This document shows positions 2,240 to 41,161 of a stretch of 50,126 bases of DNA, one piece after another (the stretch's first letter is position 1; the number at the start of each line of letters is the position of its first letter). The stretch is from sequence record MZ501051; one strand, given 5' to 3'. The notes beneath the pieces were generated by a model, which did no database searches, had not been told where the DNA came from, and saw only the letters and a list, made by a program, of their open reading frames with translations. A program made the translations under genes and the position numbers. This stretch comes from Escherichia phage AugustePiccard.

Positions 2240-2716
2240 ATGAATTGGGCTGAATTTTTTAGATACGAAGATGGAAATCTGGTAAGGGTTACCACAACCT
2301 CAAGTAGAGCTATTGAGGGCATGGTTGCTGGAAGCTTGTCTGGCAATGGCTATCTGCACATAAGAATAGGCGACAGGCGTGTAAAAAACCATCTCATAAT
2401 TTGGGAGATGCACAATGGAAGGATACCAGAAGGGATGGAGATAGATCATATCAATCACATAAAGACAGATAACAGGATCGAGAATTTAAGGCTCGTAAGT
2501 CACAAACAGAACCTATCAAACGCATCTCTTAGGTCAGACTCGTCAACTGGTGCGAGTGGCGTTAGTTGGAACAGAAACAGGCAGAAGTGGCACGCTTATA
2601 TAAAGTCTAACTACAAGAGGATGCACATAGGATTTTTTGATTCCTTTGATGATGCCGTAGCAGCAAGAAAGAAAAAGGAGATTGAATTGGGATTTCATGA
2701 GAATCACGGAAAATAG
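2240..2716 (+). CDS. HNH homing endonuclease with AP2-like DNA-binding domain (copy 1)
   Basis: Motif IDHINHIKTDNRIENLR plus SGVSW..W.AYI; starts MNW like copies 2 and 3 (track ORF begins at GTG 2231). Confidence 0.8.
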   Translation: MNWAEFFRYEDGNLVRVTTTSSRAIEGMVAGSLSGNGYLHIRIGDRRVKNHLIIWEMHNGRIPEGMEIDHINHIKTDNRIENLRLVSHKQNLSNASLRSDSSTGASGVSWNRNRQKWHAYIKSNYKRMHIGFFDSFDDAVAARKKKEIELGFHENHGK

Positions 2717-2756
2717 CACGAATTGCTAAACGACTAGGCCACGGATGGCGTATAGT
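2711..2756 (+). promoter_or_regulatory. box promoter (palindromic box + 22 nt + -10)
   Basis: AAATAGCACGAATTGCTAAA, 22-nt spacer, TATAGT; leader CAAAACGAGAGGAG. Confidence 0.6.
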
Positions 2757-2787
2757 TACCTTACCAAAACGAGAGGAGAAAAGATAA

Positions 2788-3168
2788 ATGACAAAAAAAT
2801 CAAAGGCTGTATATCTTGGCAACACCGAAGGAGAGTATTATGGTTTCACTGTAGGGAATGAATATGATGTTCACAATTATGAAACTGAAGATAACTTCAT
2901 TGGTACTTTTGGTGATGATGGTGGTTATCGTCACATCAAGAACGGAGCATTCCACAAGTTCGAACTCCTCGAGGATTATGATTTCGTAACTGAAAGCGAA
3001 TGCGCAGTCATGCCCCTTAGTTCCGATAAACAACCAGAGCTTAGATATTTCATAAACGGTCATGAGTTTAATAAGATTGAGTTCGAAAATGTGCGCTATA
3101 CTGTAAATCAACTTGATGAGGGCGGCGTAAAATGCGACACAATCAAGTTCGAAGTAAAATTCGAGTAA
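2788..3168 (+). CDS. hypothetical small protein (moron; paralogue of 17915..18232)
   Basis: Own box promoter and conserved leader; shares GEY.FT.G..Y pattern with ORF 17915..18232; followed by a terminator. Confidence 0.6.
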   Translation: MTKKSKAVYLGNTEGEYYGFTVGNEYDVHNYETEDNFIGTFGDDGGYRHIKNGAFHKFELLEDYDFVTESECAVMPLSSDKQPELRYFINGHEFNKIEFENVRYTVNQLDEGGVKCDTIKFEVKFE

Positions 3169-6243: not shown

Positions 6244-7533
6244 ATGAACTTTTTAGATTTAGTCAGAAAGCAATACGATAGCGGAAAGGTTAGTCTTTCA
6301 GGAGTAAAGGTTAGCACTGACTTCACAACCACTTCATTAATTCAAGCAGCAACGACAATAGCTAACCCAGTCACTCACACCCGCAAGGATGAAACTAAAT
6401 TTAAGTTTACCACTTACGGGCTGGCTGATGTTTCCGGCGGCTCCTATACTGGGCAGTCGCCAAATGGCGTGCAAATGAAAATTGAGTTCATGACTGACGC
6501 GCTTGTCTTTGAGTTCAAGACTATCGGCTCTATCGGTACGTACTCTGTATTTGTTGATGGAGAGCTAACCAATATTGATGCAATCTCAACTCCTAACGGT
6601 CAAGCCGTTACTTACGTAAGAACCGAAGCCTCAGATGGCGTAATTAAGAGAATGAGACACGTCGAGATTTATGGGGTGAACACTTCATTCGGCGGGTTGT
6701 TTACCGACGCTGCGGATACGGTAACCAGCGAAATCACCATCGATCCAAAACCTTTTATCTACCAGATGGGTGACAGTTACACGTACGGCACTGGCGCAGG
6801 CTACGTAACTCAGGCATACGGCTCATCCCCAGCGATTAACGATTTCTACGTGTTCAGAAATGCGCTAGGCATGGACGGCATCGCGGAAGGTATCGGTGGT
6901 AGCGGATGGAACAGCACGGGCGGGCAAGTTCCGGCCTCAAGGTTGCAAAACAGACTGCTTAAGATGAATCGCAAGCCAGATGTTGTTAGTTTCGCTCTCG
7001 CATACAATGACGCTGCGGCTATTAACACTGGAACTAACGCAAGCAAACTAGTTACCTCGATGGGTGACGCGCTAAAGGTTGTCCGAGATGCAATGCCTGG
7101 CGTTCCTGTTATTCATGTTAGCTGTGCCACGCCAAAAGGAATCACCACGCAAATTCAGAGAGTCATAGACCTTACTCATGATTTTTGCGCAAGAAATGAC
7201 ATTCCCGTGATTGGGATTAGTAACTACGTGACTGCGGCGAACAGCATTTCATACACTGGAACGGATAACGTCCACCCAAACCCTCTGGGGCACGAATTCC
7301 GCGGTTTAGCTATGGCAAGGGAGTCATTAATGGCGGCGCTGGAAGGTCGTAGCCTGGTGCCAGAAATCAAACCCAGCGGTTTCACTGTAACTTACATTGA
7401 GCGACTCCGCTTCGCGGTTGATGTTAAGCGTGAGGTTGTTCAAGCTAAAACCGCAGATGAGGCATACTGGATGGTTAAATCTCGGGAGTACAGCAATCCA
7501 GACTTGAGAATCGAAATCATTTCTGTAGCATAA
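6244..7533 (+). CDS. SGNH/GDSL-family hydrolase (esterase) domain protein
   Basis: GDS block [11 protein letters not shown] and catalytic DxxH block [12 protein letters not shown] in the C-terminal half; flanked by terminators inside the head module. Confidence 0.6.
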
Positions 7534-12059: not shown

Positions 12060-12716
12060 ATGGCCCATCTCAGCAATGGCACTCAGGTCTTCGTAGAAGG
12101 CTCTAGGGGAGCTACAATTGACGTAACTGCAATTTCCAACGCAGTTACCCCTGTTTTAACTGTATCTGACGCCTCTGGCTTGGTTGTTGGTGATTACCTG
12201 CTTTTCACCTCTTCTGCTTCCACGCTTCTGGCTGACAAGCAAGTTCGAGTTACCGAAATCTCTGGCACGTCAGTAACTGTTGAAGGTATTGATACCTCTA
12301 GCACTACAAAGTTCCCAGCCGGTTTAACTGGTGAAGTTGTTAAGATTACTTCTTGGTTCGAAGTTCCGTGCGTTCAGGATGTATCTACTGATGGCGGCGA
12401 ACAGCAGTTCGTTAACTTCCAGTGCCTGTCAGATGACCGTGAACAGCAGATTCCGACTTATAAATCTGCGGTAACTAACACCTTTACCTTTGCTCATGAG
12501 TACACTAACCCGGTTTATCCGGTTCTGCGTAACTATGATGAGTCTGGTCAGGTTGTTGCGATTCGTCTGTTCGTACCTAGAGCCAGCGAAATGCGTTTGC
12601 AGTCCGGCACTATCGCTTTCAACGACACCCCGACCATTGGCGTTAACGAAATCGAAACGGTATCCATCGCAGTATCCATTCGTGGCCGCCTGTCCTCTGT
12701 GGCAGCAGAAGTTTAA
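12060..12716 (+). CDS. major tail protein
   Basis: 218 aa between neck genes and tail chaperones; strong terminator downstream. Confidence 0.55.
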   Translation: MAHLSNGTQVFVEGSRGATIDVTAISNAVTPVLTVSDASGLVVGDYLLFTSSASTLLADKQVRVTEISGTSVTVEGIDTSSTTKFPAGLTGEVVKITSWFEVPCVQDVSTDGGEQQFVNFQCLSDDREQQIPTYKSAVTNTFTFAHEYTNPVYPVLRNYDESGQVVAIRLFVPRASEMRLQSGTIAFNDTPTIGVNEIETVSIAVSIRGRLSSVAAEV

Positions 12717-12721
12717 AACAC

Positions 12722-12747
12722 CAACCCTCTTCGGAGGGTTTTTTATT
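12722..12747 (+). terminator. rho-independent terminator after the major tail gene
   Basis: ACCCTC-TTCG-GAGGGT plus T7. Confidence 0.75.
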
Positions 12748-12749
12748 GC

Positions 12750-12793
12750 ATAGCACTTTTTGCCAAAGATCTTATTCAACTTTGCTGTATAGT
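12750..12793 (+). promoter_or_regulatory. box promoter for the tail-module lipoprotein
   Basis: ATAGCACTTTTTGCCAAAG, 22 nt, TATAGT, leader CATCGAAACGAAATGAGAG. Confidence 0.55.
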
Positions 12794-12826
12794 TACCTCA
12801 TCGAAACGAAATGAGAGATTAAAGAA

Positions 12827-13213
12827 ATGAAAGCAATCATCGCAATTATGGCAACCTTGTTACTCGCTGGCTGTAACTCAGATAAGGTAAAGACACTTAA
12901 CGTTGATCTGGCATCAAACGAATGCAAGAACATCGTATACAACGCGACGGTTAACAATGAATCATTTACTCAGCTTTCATTCAAACACCCAGAGCTCAAA
13001 GATGCCGTTATGTACGTGGCGCACATTGAATGCACGAAATCTGTTAACAATTTTACCCGCGGCGTTGTAGTTGAGCACAACACAACATTGGCAAAAGTAT
13101 CAAAGCCTAGTGACGCTTCAATCGCGATGGTTTATACTAATATCTACAATTTAGAAGGTTTCGCTAAGGAAGTTGGCGAGAAGCTGGCTTACTCACGCGT
13201 TGTTATGAAATAA
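12827..13213 (+). CDS. lipoprotein (moron in tail module)
   Basis: Signal peptide with canonical lipobox LLAGC; own box promoter and leader; inserted between major tail protein and chaperone genes. Confidence 0.65.
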   Translation: MKAIIAIMATLLLAGCNSDKVKTLNVDLASNECKNIVYNATVNNESFTQLSFKHPELKDAVMYVAHIECTKSVNNFTRGVVVEHNTTLAKVSKPSDASIAMVYTNIYNLEGFAKEVGEKLAYSRVVMK

Positions 13214-13230: not shown

Positions 13231-13545
13231 ATGGCAAAGTTCAAACTTTCACTGGCGGCACTGCCAGACTTCAAGCTCCCAGTAAAATTTAAGCTGGCTA
13301 ACGACCAGGATGTAGAGGTTATCTTTACAGTTAAGCATAAGAAGACTTCTGAGCTTCAGGAATTGCTTAACAAGGAAGGCTTGAGCACCAAAGAACTCAT
13401 TATGGCAATTGCTTCTGATTGGGATCTGGAAGAGGAATACAACGAGGATAACGTTAATGAGTTCTCCGACCTGTTCCCGGCTTCAACTGTTGCGCTGACC
13501 ACCGCTTATATGCAAGCACTTGCTGGGCAGCGAGTAAAAAACTAA
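13231..13545 (+). CDS. tail assembly chaperone (G-like)
   Basis: Small ORF just upstream of the tape measure gene; ends at slippery heptamer A AAA AAC. Confidence 0.6.
   Translation: MAKFKLSLAALPDFKLPVKFKLANDQDVEVIFTVKHKKTSELQELLNKEGLSTKELIMAIASDWDLEEEYNEDNVNEFSDLFPASTVALTTAYMQALAGQRVKN
13536..13542 (+). other. -1 programmed ribosomal frameshift slippery site (A AAA AAC)
   Basis: X XXY YYZ heptamer 3 nt before the stop of the G-like chaperone; the -1 frame continues into ORF 13554..13865. Confidence 0.6.
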
Positions 13546-13553
13546 AACGAGCG

Positions 13554-13865
13554 GTGTATCTACAGTACCAGTCAGACCCAACCGATGCCGAACTGGAAGC
13601 TATTGGGATGCGCCGCTCTGATTACGAAGATGAAGAGCCTGAGGTTTTACACTTCGACGACAACATGATGAAGGCGTGGGACATTTATTGTTCAATGGCT
13701 ACACAATGGAGAGTCGGAGCTAACGGAGCTACAGGCTTAGATTACAACGTGCTAAATTTCCTCTTTAGAGTGTATAATGTTTCTGAAGAAGAATTGGTGC
13801 TCAGCGATTTACGCATCCTTGAAGCTAAGGCTCTAGAGATGATGGACAACCTGAGAAAAAAATAA
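13554..13865 (+). CDS. tail assembly chaperone frameshift extension (T-like; G-T fusion by -1 frameshift)
   Basis: ORF in the -1 frame relative to 13231..13545 with no independent RBS; slippery site at 13536-13542. Confidence 0.55.
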   Translation: MYLQYQSDPTDAELEAIGMRRSDYEDEEPEVLHFDDNMMKAWDIYCSMATQWRVGANGATGLDYNVLNFLFRVYNVSEEELVLSDLRILEAKALEMMDNLRKK

Positions 13866-13887
13866 CCCGCTTCGGCGGGTTTTCTAT
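13864..13887 (+). terminator. rho-independent terminator
   Basis: CCCGC-TTCG-GCGGG plus TTTTCT. Confidence 0.6.
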
Positions 13888-13900
13888 TATGGAGGCTTAG

Positions 13901-16663
13901 ATGGCAACAAATGAATTAGCCGGAATCACCCTAGCCGTAGACGTCTCGCAGGTAGACAGGGGTACGCAATCCCTACAGAAGTTCAGGCAAGCTAACCAGC
14001 AAGCCGCTTCCGGCATTAGTGAATTCGTCAATGCCGAGCAGGTTGCAAAGACTCAAGCTAGAGAAACGGCTCGCGCACTGGCTGAACAGCAAGCATCTTT
14101 GGCTAAATTGCAAACAGCGATTGATCCAACTGCGGCAAAGTTCCGTAAACTCCAGGAGGCAGCGGTAGGTCTTGATAAAGCGTTCGCTGCTGGCGCAGTT
14201 CCTGACGAGGAGTTTTTCCGATTAGGTGAAGCACTTGAAACGCAGAACGCAAAACTTGCTCGTTCACGTGCGGCGCTAACTGAAGAGGGAAGAGCGGCAG
14301 CGCAGGCTGCAAAGGATAAGGCAAAAGCAAAGGCTGAAGCGGATAGATTTATTGCGTCACTACAACGACAGGCTCAAGCGGCAACATTGACGCGTGAAGA
14401 GTACTTGAAGTTGCAGGCGGCCCAACTTGGCGTTTCGGCGCAGGCCACCCCATTAATTAACCAGATTGGCACTGCAACCCAGAGAACGGTTGAAAATCTT
14501 GGCAGGCAAGCAGCAGCATTCCAGAAATCAGGGTTAAGCGCGGGTCAATACAAAAACGCGATTTCTCAGTTACCAGCACAGATTACAGATATTGGAACAT
14601 CATTGGCTGGTGGGATTCCGATTTGGCTTATTGCAATTCAGCAGGGCGGGCAGATTAAGGATGCATTTGGCGGCATTGCTAATACTGCGAGATTCCTCCT
14701 TTCTTATCTCAACCCGCTCACGGTAGCTGCTGGAGTTCTTGGTGCTGGCTTTGCTTACGCTGCTTTAAGTATTTATAAGAGCGAGGCGGCAATTAAGGCA
14801 GCAAGAAAGGCTGTTGAGGAAACGCTTGGCGTCACAGATGAGGCAGCTCGACAACTAAGCATTAGCATCGCCAAGATTTCTGAGGCTTCAGGTAAGACTG
14901 CTGAAGACATTGCGAAGTCATTCGTATCAACACGTGACGGAGCGCAAGAAGCAATCCTGAAGCTGATTGATGTTGGTGTGAGTTATGATGAAGCCAGGGA
15001 GCTGGTCGAGCGTTACAAGAATGCATCAAACTTTACCCAAGTTAACGCACAAATCGAGCAGCACAGGCTTGAGGCTGCAAAGATTCAGGACAGCTGGTTC
15101 GAGAACGCGAAGGCTGTAAGCTACTATAATGATGTTGCTGTGCAAGGTCTTGTTAACTCCCCGCTAACAAACGTGGCGGCAAGAAACAGCGCGGCAATTC
15201 AGGAATTTGCGAGCCTTCTAGAAAAGGATGTGAACCAGGCTCTTATCGATGGTAATAGACACGTCGCTGAGCAAGTTGATTTAATCGGGAAGGAGTACTT
15301 AGCCCTTGATCGCGTGGCTGGTGCTGAGAAGTCACTTGCAGACGCCAGGAAGCAAGCAGCAGCAATTGCGAGAAGCGGTAACGCTGAAGCTATCGCTCAG
15401 GCGAACAGAGTAATTCAGTTGCGTCAGCGAGAACTAGATGAAGCCAAGAAGGCTGAGGCAGAGAGAAACAAGCCAGCAAAAACGAAAGCACCAAAGGAAG
15501 CCAGAGACCTTACCATCAATTATGAGTCAGGAGTCCTTGCTCTGGAGGCTCAGTTAAGGCTACTTCAGAACGTTGGAAGTCAGACGAAGGCAATCAGCAC
15601 TGAGCGGAGAAAACTACTTGAGGAAGAAGCTAAGTTTGCAATCCTTGAGGAGCGCCAGGCGGCTGGAACAATAGGCAGGGAGCAAGCAAGGCTTCTTATT
15701 GAGAAGGATAAGGTTCTTCAACTAGCTAGACAGAAGGCAGAATTGGGTGACCAGATTGTTTTGCAGGAGCGAGCTAATAAGTTAGCTGAAGATAACAGGA
15801 AGAAGATTCTTCAGATTAACAATGAGGCAAGTAACATCAGCCTGGGTGCTGGTCTATCCTCTCGGGAGCAGCAAAGACTCAAAGAGATTCAGGCTCTTCA
15901 ATCCAATCAGGAAAATGCTGGTGGTTCTCTTGAAGACGTAGATTTCCAGCAGTTACTGGAAGCAAGAAGGCAATTCTACAGGGATGAGGATGCGCTACGT
16001 GAAAACTGGCTTGCTGGTGTGAATCAATCCTTTGCCAATTGGGCTGAGAGCGCGACGGATGCCTTCTCAATTGCCGGAAGTTTAACCACAACCGTATTTG
16101 AGGGCATTACAGACCAGATTACCAACCTTGTAACCACTGGCGAAACAAACTTCAGAGAGTTTACTGTTAGCATTCTTAAGCAGATTGCTAAGATTGCGGC
16201 CCAGCTTCTTGTTGTCAAGGCAATCGAGTCCAGCTTAAGTAGCTTCGGTGGTACTGGCGGCGCTATTGGTTCAATTGCATCTGCTATAGGTTTCGCTGGT
16301 GGCGGTTACACTGGTGATGGAGGTAAGTATCAGCCGGCTGGCACAGTGCATCGTGGAGAGTTTGTATTCACAAAAGAAGCGACAAGCCGAATTGGTGTTA
16401 AGAACCTTTACGCACTAATGAAGGGTTACGCAAACGGCGGTGTTGTTGGTGGTCCTTCTGGTTATGCTAATGGAGGTTTGGTTTCTGGTGGCACTGATGT
16501 TAATGTTAGTGGTATCACTGTTAACGTAAACTCCGGGGTGGGTAGCGACCCAGAGCAAGCTAAGGCATTGCAAAGTGGAGTCAAGGCAATCGTAGCGGAA
16601 GAGATTGCTCAATCATTCCAGCAGGGTGGCAGGGCTTATCAGTACCTTCGCGGATTCAACTAA
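13901..16663 (+). CDS. tape measure protein
   Basis: 920 aa, Ala/Gln/Glu-rich coiled-coil N-terminal half and Gly-rich C-terminus; position in tail module. Confidence 0.85.
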
Positions 16664-17840: not shown

Positions 17841-17884
17841 ATAGCACGAATTGCTAAACACCAACGCGACGGATGGCGTATAGT
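17839..17884 (+). promoter_or_regulatory. box promoter
   Basis: AAATAGCACGAATTGCTAAA, 22 nt, TATAGT, leader TTCATCGAAACGAGAGGAG. Confidence 0.6.
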
Positions 17885-17914
17885 TACTTCATCGAAACGA
17901 GAGGAGATAAATAA

Positions 17915-18232
17915 ATGAAAGCTAAATTTATTGCAAAATCGGAATGGTACACTGGTGAGTACGAATTTACCACTGGAGAGGATTACGAACTTAGTCACCA
18001 AGGCGGCAACTTCTATTCAACAATAGACAATAACGGTCTTTTGGCTTACTTTGAAAATGGTCGATACTATGAATTTGAGATCCTCAAAAATGAATCAAAA
18101 GAGAAGGAGATGACTTACAGAATGAATGGGGATGTGGTTACTGAATCATTCTTTTATGACAGGCTAATGGAGGCTGAGGCACTTAAGTCCAGAGGGGTTT
18201 CTGTATTTATAGATTTTGAGGTTAGTTTTTAA
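17915..18232 (+). CDS. hypothetical small protein (moron; paralogue of 2788..3168)
   Basis: Own box promoter and leader; YTGEYEFTTGEDYEL motif shared with ORF 2788..3168. Confidence 0.6.
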   Translation: MKAKFIAKSEWYTGEYEFTTGEDYELSHQGGNFYSTIDNNGLLAYFENGRYYEFEILKNESKEKEMTYRMNGDVVTESFFYDRLMEAEALKSRGVSVFIDFEVSF

Positions 18233-23158: not shown

Positions 23159-23186
23159 CAAAAGCCCCGAAAGGGGCTTTATCTTT
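23159..23186. terminator. bidirectional terminator between convergent genes
   Basis: AGCCCC-GAAA-GGGGCT flanked by A-run and T-rich tract. Confidence 0.6.
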
Positions 23187-24120
23187 AATACATATCAGGA
23201 AGGTAAGGAAGAGGAATGCCAAGTGTAACGTCTGGCCTATTTCCAATTTCATATCTAACTATCCTTGTGCCCGTGCCGCTCCTTACATTACCACCAGACA
23301 TTACCACACCTTTGTTTCTTAGCTCCTTGTATGCAGGTATTGCTCTTGTGTTAAACCCACACCTAAGTATTGGAAAGTATGAGTTTCCTATACTCTGGTT
23401 TGAGCTCGTCAAGGTCCTGAACCCAGAAACAACAAGAGGCCTTGTTAATGTTGAAAAAGTACACTGATTGTTAGAGTTGAATATGTTTATGCCAGGCCCT
23501 GGGGTTGGAGCAACCTGCTGAAATATTATTAGATCAAGAGTTACGCTACCAGGGGTATCTCCAGTATCTTCTGTATTTATATTCGTGCAATATAGAGTTC
23601 TGTCACCATCAAACTCAACTGAGACACCTGAGTTATTCCACTTCCCAAAAGGTATTCCAGCTATTGGCATTGTATAGCTGTTTGTGAATGATACGGTTGC
23701 TGAAAATTTGCAAGTAAGAAGCCTATCCCTTGTTGTTATAGAGGCGAAATCAGTACTATCAGCAACGTATATACCTTGCCCAGTTGACGCTCTCAATACT
23801 TCCACTACAGTTCCAGAGAACTGCGTAATACGGTCATTATAAGCATTCTCCCCACCAATAGTTATCGTCCCCTGAGTATTGGTTGCTGAAAATCCATTTA
23901 TATAATAAATCTCAACCCCCCTATCAAGTTCAAAGCTATAGGCACCATTTCTTGGTAGTAAGAATTTTGATGAGCCATCGCTACCAGTTATTGGGAATGT
24001 CTTTGTAAATCCTCCGCTAGAAACGTTGAAGTTACCAGCAAAAGACAACCCCCTCATCCCTGAGGTTATCATCATTGGGTTTCTACCATCATTCAGATCT
24101 ATATATATACCTTGGGCCAT
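23185..24120 (-). CDS. hypothetical protein (possible receptor-binding or tail-associated)
   Basis: About 311 aa, convergent with J; start ATG 24120 overlaps the upstream lipoprotein stop (TAATG); Gly/Ser/Thr/Asn-rich. Confidence 0.35.
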   Translation of the reverse strand: MAQGIYIDLNDGRNPMMITSGMRGLSFAGNFNVSSGGFTKTFPITGSDGSSKFLLPRNGAYSFELDRGVEIYYINGFSATNTQGTITIGGENAYNDRITQFSGTVVEVLRASTGQGIYVADSTDFASITTRDRLLTCKFSATVSFTNSYTMPIAGIPFGKWNNSGVSVEFDGDRTLYCTNINTEDTGDTPGSVTLDLIIFQQVAPTPGPGINIFNSNNQCTFSTLTRPLVVSGFRTLTSSNQSIGNSYFPILRCGFNTRAIPAYKELRNKGVVMSGGNVRSGTGTRIVRYEIGNRPDVTLGIPLPYLPDMY

Positions 24121-24350
24121 TAATTCCACTCCTTAGAGCCATGATCACGAACAGATCCGCTAGAGCCTTTAATTCCATCGTAACGAACATCAACCTCGCC
24201 AGCCGGAACAACTACACCACCCTTCCATTTAGCTACGCATACGCCGTTAGCTTGAGTTGCACACCAACCATCCGGGCGAGGACCCGATGAACAACCTACT
24301 GTCATGATTACTACTGCGGCGATGATTGCTGATTTGATTAAGTTAGTCAT
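24120..24350 (-). CDS. small lipoprotein (Cor/Llp-like superinfection-exclusion candidate)
   Basis: 76 aa; signal peptide ending in lipobox-like ..MTVGC; own box promoter; coupled to the downstream gene. Confidence 0.5.
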
Positions 24351-24390: not shown

Positions 24391-24436
24391 ATAGTATCGC
24401 ATCCTTGCGATCAGTGTTTAGCAATTCGTGCTATTC
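24391..24436 (-). promoter_or_regulatory. box promoter for the Cor-like lipoprotein
   Basis: Minus strand: GAATAGCACGAATTGCTAAA, 22 nt, TACTAT, CCATCGAAACGAAACG; the box encodes the methyltransferase C-terminus N-S-T-N-C-stop. Confidence 0.6.
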
Positions 24437-31947: not shown

Positions 31948-31965
31948 ATAGCACGAATTGCTAAA
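31948..31965. promoter_or_regulatory. palindromic box copy upstream of the tail fibre gene (orientation ambiguous)
   Basis: ATAGCACGAATTGCTAAA only about 25 nt from ATG 31924, with no correctly spaced -10 on the gene side. Confidence 0.35.
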
Positions 31966-33462: not shown

Positions 33463-33936
33463 TTAATCTTTAGCTTTTCGTGCTGCTTCGTTAGCTGCCT
33501 TAATCTTGCGCCACGATCGACACTCTGGCTTGGTGGCCAGTTCAGCCTCAGTTACCACACGCAGCATGTGACGTTTTTTGCAGCGTAGAGTTAGTGGTTT
33601 TCCGTTACCGTCGAATTGCAGGTCTGGTCTACAGAATGTGGCGCGAAAACCTTCTCCGGTTCGTTTGTAGTAGTTGTGCGACAGTTGAGCGCCACGTGCA
33701 GAAATCATACCACGCTTAAACCACTCTTCTACAGCCTGCGGCGTTACCTTTAACTGCTTTGCGATATTCGCCTTTGTGCCGAAGAAATCAAGAATCATCT
33801 CTAACCTTGCGCGTAACCCAGCCCTTACCTCATCTTTCAAAACGTAGTAACCTGAAGGTCGCTTTCGCTGCTTTTTATCTTCAGTGCGGATGGTTCCGTT
33901 ATTGCCGTTAATGGTTCGCTTGTCAATTGTACTCAT
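33463..33936 (-). CDS. HTH DNA-binding protein (putative transcriptional regulator)
   Basis: Helix-turn-helix-like segment TKANIAKQLKVTPQAVEEWFKRGMIS; basic protein; first gene of a leftward block. Confidence 0.5.
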   Translation of the reverse strand: MSTIDKRTINGNNGTIRTEDKKQRKRPSGYYVLKDEVRAGLRARLEMILDFFGTKANIAKQLKVTPQAVEEWFKRGMISARGAQLSHNYYKRTGEGFRATFCRPDLQFDGNGKPLTLRCKKRHMLRVVTEAELATKPECRSWRKIKAANEAARKAKD

Positions 33937-34037
33937 TTCATTACCTCGATAGCATTTTTTGTTAAAAGTCATTCTGATTTGATGGTAGTATTGTACTCAA
34001 TTAAACGCTACAAGACAATTTTTATAGGAATTTAGAT

Positions 34038-40301: not shown

Positions 40302-40787
40302 ATGAAGCAGAAGCTGGTAGTTGGTGCCGCGACCGCTGCAGCGATATACATCGCAGCGCCTCTTATTGAGCTTGTGGAGGGTGTCGAATACAATCCATAC
40401 ATGGATATTGCTGGAATCCCTACAGTCTGTTCTGGCATTACTGGTCCTGACGTTGTTTGGGGTAAAAAATACAGCAAGAGGGAATGCCGAAACCTGCTTG
40501 AGAAACACATTCAGATTCATGGAAAGCATGTTCATGATGCAGTTACCTACCCAATTTCACCGCAGACAAGGGCAGCGTTAATCAGCTTTAGCTACAACGT
40601 TGGTGGTCATGCCATGAAGAACTCAACGGCAATTCGCCTTATCAACCAGGGTAAGATTGAGCAGGGTTGTAAGGCTCTCGGGATGTGGACGAAGGCCACC
40701 GTTAATGGCAAGAAGGTTGTCGTTAAGGGGTTAGTGAATCGCAGGAATGAGGAGATTAAGTTATGCTTAAGTGGATTGCAGCGTTAG
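40302..40787 (+). CDS. SAR endolysin (T4-lysozyme-like muramidase)
   Basis: N-terminal signal-anchor VVGAATAAAIYIAAPLI followed by catalytic E-x8-D-x5-T (EGVEYNPYMDIAGIPT). Confidence 0.75.
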   Translation: MKQKLVVGAATAAAIYIAAPLIELVEGVEYNPYMDIAGIPTVCSGITGPDVVWGKKYSKRECRNLLEKHIQIHGKHVHDAVTYPISPQTRAALISFSYNVGGHAMKNSTAIRLINQGKIEQGCKALGMWTKATVNGKKVVVKGLVNRRNEEIKLCLSGLQR

Positions 40788-41161
40788 TGATGTGCGCGGC
40801 TTTATCTGGATGTTCAGCAACAGATGCACTGACCGGATTGATTGGCAGTAAGCCAGAGATTAGTGCACAGGCTGGCGCCGAGAACAACAAGGTTGGGGTT
40901 GGGTTAACAAATAAGGTTGATTCCAGTAACTCCAGTGAAGCCACGGTTAAAGACTCTAAGGTTGGGTCACTAGATAGCTCGAGCGGTAAAAAGACTGCCG
41001 ACAACTCGATTAGGGCCTCTACAATCACCGCGGAAAGGATTGAGATTACCAATAATGACTCATTCAGCATTTATGAAATACTGGCATTGATTGGATTTCC
41101 TCTGCTCATTATTTTTAATGGCTGCTATGTGCTTTACAGGGCAAACAAAAAAGCCTCCTAA
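40763..41161 (+). CDS. unimolecular spanin (lipoprotein with C-terminal TMD)
   Basis: Lipobox LSGC at the N-terminus and a C-terminal hydrophobic helix (ILALIGFPLLIIF); overlaps the endolysin 3' end. Confidence 0.65.
   Translation: MLKWIAALVMCAALSGCSATDALTGLIGSKPEISAQAGAENNKVGVGLTNKVDSSNSSEATVKDSKVGSLDSSSGKKTADNSIRASTITAERIEITNNDSFSIYEILALIGFPLLIIFNGCYVLYRANKKAS

Follow-up and report, generated by a model that had tools for sequence, protein, structure and literature searches.

The DNA analyzed here is a stretch of 50,126 nucleotides from Escherichia phage AugustePiccard (sequence record MZ501051; called the window in what follows), an Rtp-like coliphage of the Drexlerviridae (Braunvirinae) with ~90% nucleotide identity to phage Rtp across the region, and our subject is a small prolipoprotein gene in its tail module. 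The gene lies between the gene for the major tail protein and those for the tail assembly chaperones, where the initial annotation had placed it and where Pfam matches of both flanks confirm it, and is orthologous to rtp34 of Rtp (87% amino acid identity; 91% to the counterpart in RobRod40 and 89% to that in MM01). An intrinsic terminator and a box element with a -10-like hexamer and a conserved leader precede it, and only 17 nt separate its stop codon from the ATG of the chaperone G gene (Table 1). From sequence and comparison it is a genuine accessory gene of this phage, and its product is probably an envelope-acting accessory factor. The rtp34-family gene is already in the databases as an uncharacterized open reading frame (ORF), and phage accessory lipoproteins, or morons, are a known kind; what is new is the definition of the family with its orphan fold, the two-allele slot for envelope proteins with its conserved exchange junction, the independence of the gene from the receptor module, and its co-distribution with a variant of the tape measure protein (TMP).

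The ORF (N-terminus MKAIIAIMATLLLAGCNSDK) has the length of 128 residues and the canonical lipobox that the initial annotation gave it, as the sequence itself confirms. The predicted signal peptide comprises residues 1-15 (MKAIIAIMATLLLAG, followed by C16), with Lys2 in the n-region, an 11-residue hydrophobic core (AIIAIMATLLL), the lipobox L-A-G-C ending in Cys16 (codon TGT at 12872-12874), and Asn at position +2. It thus shows the n-region charge, the h-region, and the [LVI][ASTVI][GAS]C motif within ~25 residues of a lipoprotein precursor; the match to Pfam LPAM_1 is sub-threshold (E 0.058), which is no surprise with a motif of this brevity. The mature protein has 113 residues, with conserved cysteines at positions 33 and 69. 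Among four rtp34-type orthologs the ratio of nonsynonymous to synonymous substitution rates (dN/dS) is 0.12-0.21, the mark of a sequence under purifying selection. GC content in the gene is mildly low, 41.3% as compared with 44-49% in the neighboring genes, and that of third codon positions (GC3) is not deviant.

Table 1. Features of the lipoprotein locus and its surroundings (coordinates of the window)
Feature	Position	Strand	Evidence or remark
Major tail protein gene	12060-12716	+	PF08813, E 7.5e-68; upstream neighbor
Intrinsic terminator	12723..12746	+	Terminator scan; stem AACCCTC-TTCG-GAGGGTT (12723-12740), then T-run
Box element ATAGCACTTTTTGCCAAA, dyad TAGCA-N5-TGCCA	12750..12767	+	1 mismatch to consensus ATAGCAC-N3-TTGCTAAA
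-10-like hexamer TATAGT (12788-12793) and conserved leader TACCTCATCGAAACGAAA	12788..12811	+	Fixed spacing, recurrence
Shine-Dalgarno GAGAGA, weak	12813..12818	+	8 nt before ATG; kept in Rtp and EC3a
Prolipoprotein gene, rtp34 ortholog	12827..13213	+	ORF, orthologs, dN/dS, AlphaFold2 model
Tail assembly chaperone G-like gene	13231..13545	+	PF08748, E 3.9e-33
Second chaperone ORF (T part)	13554..13865	+	DUF1799/PF08809, E 5e-16; -1 frame relative to G ORF
Terminator-like hairpin just before tape measure gene, end of the box-lipoprotein-chaperone unit	13864..13881	+	Scan; MM01 and EC3a annotate terminators equivalently placed
Tape measure protein gene, 920 aa	13901-16663	+	Follows chaperones
TMP central part, aa 281-640	14741..15820	+	Variant co-occurring with lipoprotein-family cargo

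A word-indexed search of 5.8 billion clusters recovered 14 proteins of the rtp34 family, and a full scan with a hidden Markov model (1.84 billion) six representatives, one of which is a weak match to a 2144-residue repeat protein. The latter (P0019) gave nine weak matches to family-profile positions 8-88 with E 1.6e-4, and may be either a Cys-containing repeat protein or noise. All family members with readable context come from Drexlerviridae-type loci, and some of them (P0014, P0015, and TR1) sit in the same slot between major tail protein and chaperone. Kept down to 30% identity are the signal peptide, Cys33 (in N-x-C-x-N), Cys69 (in E-C), and a K-P-S-D-like loop. Signal peptide and lipobox are found in four of the five recovered relatives outside the rtp34 subgroup (P0015-P0018), as well as in BEK12A and TR1; the exception, P0014, retains a signal or anchor at its N-terminus but not the cysteine of the lipobox, and P0017 has Asp at +2. 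Both conserved cysteines are present in all recovered relatives, P0014 included. Since the anchor varies in this way, the common denominator of the family is the periplasm and not necessarily the outer membrane. In P0014 (L004:1848-2243) the mature domain is rtp34-like, with 56% identity, and the N-terminus ends in ...VINP, comparable to the ...IVNPT of the membrane helix of the 82-residue protein that occupies the slot in other phages (see below); P0014 may be a chimera of the two alleles.

Nothing informative on the lipoprotein came from Pfam, PHROGs, NCBIfam, or PADLOC, the only PHROGs hits being weak ones to phrog_902 and phrog_6360, both of "unknown function". AlphaFold2, run on an 8-sequence alignment, returned a model with a predicted local distance difference test score (pLDDT) of 82.9 and a predicted template modeling score (pTM) of 0.75, in which the mature domain consists of five helices and a small sheet. 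With this model Foldseek found nothing below E = 1 in the PDB, a profile search of PDB sequences found no match, and a structure search of BFVD returned the MM01 ortholog only. As predicted, the protein would be exported by Sec, lipidated on Cys16, and sorted by Lol, owing to Asn at +2, to the inner leaflet of the outer membrane, from which a ~12.6-kDa, mostly helical domain, probably stapled by a Cys33-Cys69 disulfide, would extend into the periplasm.

The surroundings of the gene identify it as an insertion. In Rogunavirus loci L016-L021 and in BEK12A the major tail protein and chaperone genes are adjacent, with no box between them, and the slot is empty in T1 too, to judge from the rtp34 annotation, which cites no T1 homolog; the statement of the initial annotation that the gene is inserted in the tail module is thereby borne out. 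Such insertion between genes that are adjacent in relatives characterizes morons, of which HK97 gene 15 is the archetype. Another of their characteristics, an own terminator directly downstream, is lacking here, terminators being called only at 12723 and 13864. Across the Braunvirinae the sequence is nearly the same from the terminator through box and leader to the fifth base of the ORF (ATGAA), whereas the cargo differs: an unrelated 82-residue protein (phrog_22925) in 82 records, and the rtp34 type in four (Rtp twice, RobRod40, and MM01). In the 82-residue allele the N-terminus forms a hydrophobic helix and two cysteines are conserved, and no homology between it and the lipoprotein was detectable with hhalign. 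Two alleles in one slot, together with relatives in which the slot is empty, argue that the gene is a moron-like insertion in a cassette-exchange slot for envelope-targeted proteins.

The major tail protein and G-like chaperone genes of the window are closer to those of EC3a/IME253-type phages than to those of Rtp, and the region is therefore mosaic. The synonymous divergence (dS) from Rtp is 0.28 in the lipoprotein gene as compared with 0.58 in the major tail protein gene and 0.94 in the G-like gene, the last being 96% identical in nucleotide sequence to that of EC3a, which points to fine-scaled mosaicism around the slot. The hairpin of the terminator at 12723 appears in both the minimum free energy and the centroid fold and is identical in Rtp and EC3a. 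The leader is unlikely to contain a structured RNA element: its fold has a z-score of -0.57, and from Rfam the locus drew a single sub-threshold chance match, to rsmX at 13812-13885 and hence outside the leader (E 0.33; 21 bits, the gathering score being 56).

A slot that tolerates emptiness or an unrelated gene might hold a gene with no function of its own, that is, a passenger of recombination mediated by box and leader, or an upstream ORF that sets chaperone expression, with which the absence of a terminator before the chaperone genes, and hence a shared transcript, would agree. We consider this highly improbable in view of the purifying selection on the gene, the retention of signal peptide, lipobox, and both cysteines in relatives as distant as 30% identity, and the confidently folded model.

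A second alternative is an envelope modulator that has nothing to do with exclusion and acts on lysis timing, inhibits a periplasmic peptidoglycan hydrolase (the phage endolysin or an enzyme of the host), stabilizes the outer membrane during infection, or counters an envelope-associated host defense. The predicted periplasmic location with conserved cysteines would suit such a protein, as would the restriction of the family to virulent Drexlerviridae, the position of the P0018-type homolog, which adjoins a lysis cassette and is convergent with it, and the absence of the gene from most relatives, which marks it as dispensable and accessory. Against it, the protein bears no likeness to spanins, antiholins, lysozyme inhibitors, or models of defense and anti-defense proteins, the phage has a complete lysis cassette including a spanin, and nothing speaks positively for any single one of these functions; we regard the alternative as possible but doubtful. 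An identity as a spanin was itself considered and rejected, as the lipoprotein gene lies outside the lysis cassette, its product has a C-terminus (...GEKLAYSRVVMK) that lacks hydrophobicity and forms no transmembrane domain, and another gene of the phage already encodes a spanin. The latter, an Rz-like/unimolecular spanin at 40763-41161 (phrog_1804, E 2.5e-47), stands at the end of the lysis cassette; with it the phage has three predicted genes of the lipoprotein type.

The first base of the box, 12750, is exactly where the interval of the initial annotation begins. The box lies on the + strand in the intergenic region, 77 nt ahead of the ATG of the lipoprotein gene, and belongs to an over-represented class: the consensus, with a dyad TAGCA-N5-TGCTA, occurs in 23 copies in the window as compared with 2.05 expected (at most 3 mismatches), and the composite of box, 22 nt, and TATAGT at 17 sites as compared with 0.4 expected. 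The geometry is fixed, with the hexamer 38 nt from the box start and the ATG at ~+72 to +85, and the 24-mer TATAGTTACCTCATCGAAACGAAA occurs five times in the window. If transcription starts ~7 nt past the hexamer, we infer that the dyad would be centered near -42. A box or near-box also stands ~76 nt upstream of each family member for which upstream sequence was available (L004, L003, L025, and L027), and box and leader precede unrelated small genes in JK06, Sin4, BEK12A, and the T4-like Lemur_ER36.

Of the "box promoter" named in the initial annotation, the box with its TATAGT element stands, as a member of this class; the promoter call found no echo in a generic sigma-70 scan, which reported no promoter in 12741-12826. 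The silence of the scan is explained by the spacing between TTGCCA and TATAGT, which is 22 nt and not 16-18. Three conventional readings were rejected by eye: every copy has a 22-nt spacer, which speaks against TTGCCA as a -35 element; a sigma-54 site would need GG-N10-GC where AG-N8-GC stands; and for an extended -10 the TG is in the wrong place. A look through the literature for T1-like phages turned up neither transcriptomes nor mapped transcription starts. The abstract of the original Rtp genome paper reportedly proposes that the regulator Rtp52 binds ~10 conserved inverted repeats. The window counterpart of Rtp52 is a Cro-like helix-turn-helix protein encoded at 33463-33972 (-), a core Drexlerviridae gene.

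Further occurrences of the box were observed. In the 176-kb Klebsiella phage Lemur_ER36 (L007:1501-1562), box, TATAGT, and the leader TCATCGAAACGAAA stand upstream of a small gene, and box-element matches also came from p111 and Cronobacter phage CS01. Its presence in unrelated large myophages suggests either that the regulatory cassette has spread horizontally or that a host factor recognizes it; the matches listed included no Rtp52-like regulator from myophages of this kind. Within the window, a perfect box at 31948-31965 (+), between two minus-strand genes, has neither a -10-like hexamer nor an ATG at the usual distance and, by this arrangement, is either an orphan or a copy put to a different use. 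Two paralogous small cytoplasmic genes at 2713-3168 and 17841-18232 (126 and 105 residues; phrog_14592, "virion structural protein"), placed in the head/packaging and tail modules, each follow a perfect box and TATAGT and look like further box-driven insertions.

The initial annotation likened the protein to superinfection-exclusion proteins of the Llp/Cor type, which block the phage receptor, and set it apart, as a second lipoprotein, from the Cor-like gene at 24120..24350. The Cor-like gene proved real and unrelated: encoded on the (-) strand, it matches PF24052 (E 1.2e-36) and chain D of PDB entry 9RPS, which is Rtp45 (E 2.3e-42), and is thus an Rtp45 ortholog, adjoining the DUF6453 receptor-binding gene in a receptor-binding locus at 23185-24350. 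A perfect box at 24417-24434 (-), of the same class as the rtp34-like box, precedes the Rtp45-type gene and the receptor-binding gene downstream on the same strand. Rtp45 is a structurally characterized, LptDE-binding exclusion lipoprotein, and the mechanism by which Llp acts on FhuA is likewise known (PMC12685063).

The likeness of the rtp34-type protein itself to this group did not hold. In sequence and fold comparisons with PF24052, 9RPS_D, and Llp (8A60) it is not a member; its mature form is about twice the size, and 11 kb separate its gene from the receptor-binding locus, with neither adjacency to a receptor-binding gene nor co-variation with the receptor. The rtp34-type gene is found with the LptD-type module (DUF6453 receptor-binding protein) in the window, in Rtp, and in the P0001 contigs, and with the cassette of "outer membrane protein + membrane-associated protein + Cor" in RobRod40 and MM01, the Cor-type cassette being a mark of FhuA-targeting phages (PMC13164509). 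Occurring with both modules, it is not tied to the terminal receptor. Rtp45-type genes, conversely, are present without rtp34 in more than 90 phages, and this, the two module types, and the presence of an Rtp45 ortholog in the window together indicate that the phage's own terminal receptor is not what the protein blocks. A block of the Llp/Cor/Rtp45 kind, in which the lipoprotein would attach to an outer-membrane protein from the periplasmic side and abolish binding of phages or colicins by an allosteric effect, would then have to concern a second receptor or the receptor of competitors. The lipobox and Asn at +2, which predict the inner leaflet of the outer membrane, the shared class of box, and the precedent of small phage lipoproteins with such a mechanism (Llp-FhuA and Rtp45-LptDE; PMC12685063) agree with this alternative, but given that an LptD blocker already stands beside the receptor-binding gene, and that the relatives without lipobox (P0014) or with Asp at +2 (P0017) suggest that outer-membrane anchoring is not essential, we judge it unlikely. 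Some form of superinfection exclusion is plausible all the same.

What does accompany the lipoprotein is a variant of the tape measure protein. In every slot lipoprotein carrier from which the full TMP gene was recovered (the window, Rtp, RobRod40, MM01, TR1, L024, L033, and L034-36) the protein has 917-923 residues, and all of these but L024 have the central region of the window. In tblastn searches the center of the window TMP (residues 281-640) has counterparts of 92% identity or more in RobRod40, TR1, Rtp, and MM01 alone, with 46% for the match that follows, and in the metagenomic carriers L033, L034, L036, and L038 it is matched over its full length at 81-86% nucleotide identity. L038 and L004, in which the contig end cuts the gene, also carry the window-type central region, and a search of IMG/VR with the center returned Rtp alone. 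All 82-residue carriers examined, including those with alleles of 50-56% identity, have a TMP of 992-993 residues with a different center. Between cargo and TMP lies the G-like chaperone gene, which is 85-87% identical in nucleotide sequence to those of the other lipoprotein carriers as against 96% to that of EC3a; recombination has therefore occurred inside the block without splitting the pair of cargo and TMP. This co-distribution weakly favors an exclusion that acts after adsorption and is related to the tail or the TMP.

By analogy with HK97 gp15, and in full view of the points gathered below, we tentatively prefer the possibility that the lipoprotein excludes phages at entry, from the periplasm and at a step after receptor binding, without giving it even odds. 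It would be made during infection and would hinder the entry of further phages after they have recognized the terminal receptor, the blocked step being the delivery of the genome through the periplasm or across the inner membrane, which depends on the tail tip and the TMP. Its logic would be nearer to that of HK97 gp15 or of T4 Sp and Imm than to the masking of the phage's own receptor by Llp, Cor, or Rtp45, and the 82-residue membrane protein of most relatives would be an alternative allele of the same functional slot. An extension of this proposal, in which the slot alleles of the Braunvirinae, lipoprotein and 82-residue bitopic protein, would each be matched to a TMP variant (~920 and ~992 residues, respectively) in a receptor-independent system of entry exclusion and TMP specificity, with each envelope protein blocking genome delivery through the periplasm by phages of a defined TMP type and with box and leader as the portable junction that carries such cargo from slot to slot and from phage to phage, we hold to be improbable.

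Several observations weigh against post-adsorption exclusion. Shared descent of two old haplotype blocks could account for the association with the TMP; the carriers belong to different genera, and the loci are only ~1.5 kb apart. In L024 the TMP center is divergent even though its length is in range, and in TR1 a lipoprotein of ~30% identity accompanies a TMP center of 96% identity, so that there is no fine co-variation. The family members of BEK12A and P0018 sit in a different slot, after helicase/VRR-NUC genes, and BEK12A combines this placement with a 975-residue TMP and an empty slot. A strict family-wide tie to the TMP type, considered as a stronger form of the association, is weakened by BEK12A and TR1. 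An outer-membrane anchor, as predicted from Asn at +2, is placed more like that of Llp and Cor than like the inner-membrane gp15, and the family and structure searches returned no homolog with a known function. As for expression, the box has no canonical -35, its promoter activity being presumed, and the terminator scan called nothing between the lipoprotein gene and the chaperone genes. Any transcript started at the box should therefore cover the lipoprotein gene together with the G and T parts, and the gene is not a self-contained moron.

If the proposed post-adsorption exclusion is true, the protein would be a structurally novel tool for dissecting the passage of siphophage tails across the Gram-negative periplasm, a step of genome delivery that is still poorly understood in Gram-negative hosts. 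The design of Drexlerviridae cocktails would also be affected, as one member could exclude another that uses a different receptor. Regardless of function, the conserved junction of terminator, box, and leader with interchangeable genes for envelope proteins is an example of accessory-gene shuffling in virulent phages. Were the gene an ordinary passenger, the result would be a routine upgrade of annotation, in which rtp34-like ORFs change from "hypothetical protein" to "predicted outer-membrane lipoprotein". Elsewhere in the window, a 429-residue head-module ORF at 6244-7533 stands beside a 477-residue fiber-like gene, and its counterpart in L034 has GDSL-lipase Pfam matches.

The closest known counterpart of the gene is Rtp34 of Rtp (CAJ42238.1; "Lipoprotein" in UniRef, annotated as "hypothetical protein"), which likewise has 128 residues, lies between rtp33 (major tail protein) and rtp35 (chaperone), and shares with the window the terminator, box, and leader upstream. 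The box has a counterpart in the 21-nt repeat aaATAGCACnnnTTGnTAAAA of phage TLS, which runs along the direction of transcription ~76 nt before start codons, is also found in T1 and Rtp, and for which roles as a stoperator, an enhancer site, or an UP-like element have been floated (PMC11447400). The element at 12750-12767 is a copy of this Drexlerviridae repeat (TLS, T1, Rtp, and Rogue1), with the same consensus and orientation; the fixed 22-nt spacing to a TATAGT/TATAAT hexamer and the leader common to several genera go beyond the TLS description.

Rtp45, Cor, and Llp (9RPS, 8A60) are likewise lipobox lipoproteins of virulent siphophages, and the Rtp45 ortholog of the window has the same class of box; in contrast to the rtp34-type protein, with its 113 mature residues and its gene 11 kb away, they have only ~55-60 mature residues and are encoded next to the receptor-binding protein. 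T4 Spackle (Sp) and Imm are, like the protein proposed here, made in lytic infection and exported to the envelope, and the post-adsorption block to entry is shared by hypothesis only. HK97 gp15 is encoded in the tail operon beside the chaperone and tape measure genes and is a membrane protein that blocks genome entry in a manner dependent on the tail and independent of the receptor (PMC3594210). It differs from the rtp34-type protein in that it comes from a temperate phage, is YebO-like, spans the inner membrane once, and has its gene after the chaperones, whereas the rtp34-type protein is a lipoprotein of a virulent phage, encoded before the chaperones and without a downstream terminator of its own; Pfam gave no YebO match, and its N-terminus is a predicted cleavable lipoprotein signal. 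The two are alike as products of an extra tail-operon gene near the chaperone and tape measure genes and in their envelope location, and the independence of the rtp34-type gene from the receptor module and its co-distribution with a TMP variant fit the logic of gp15.

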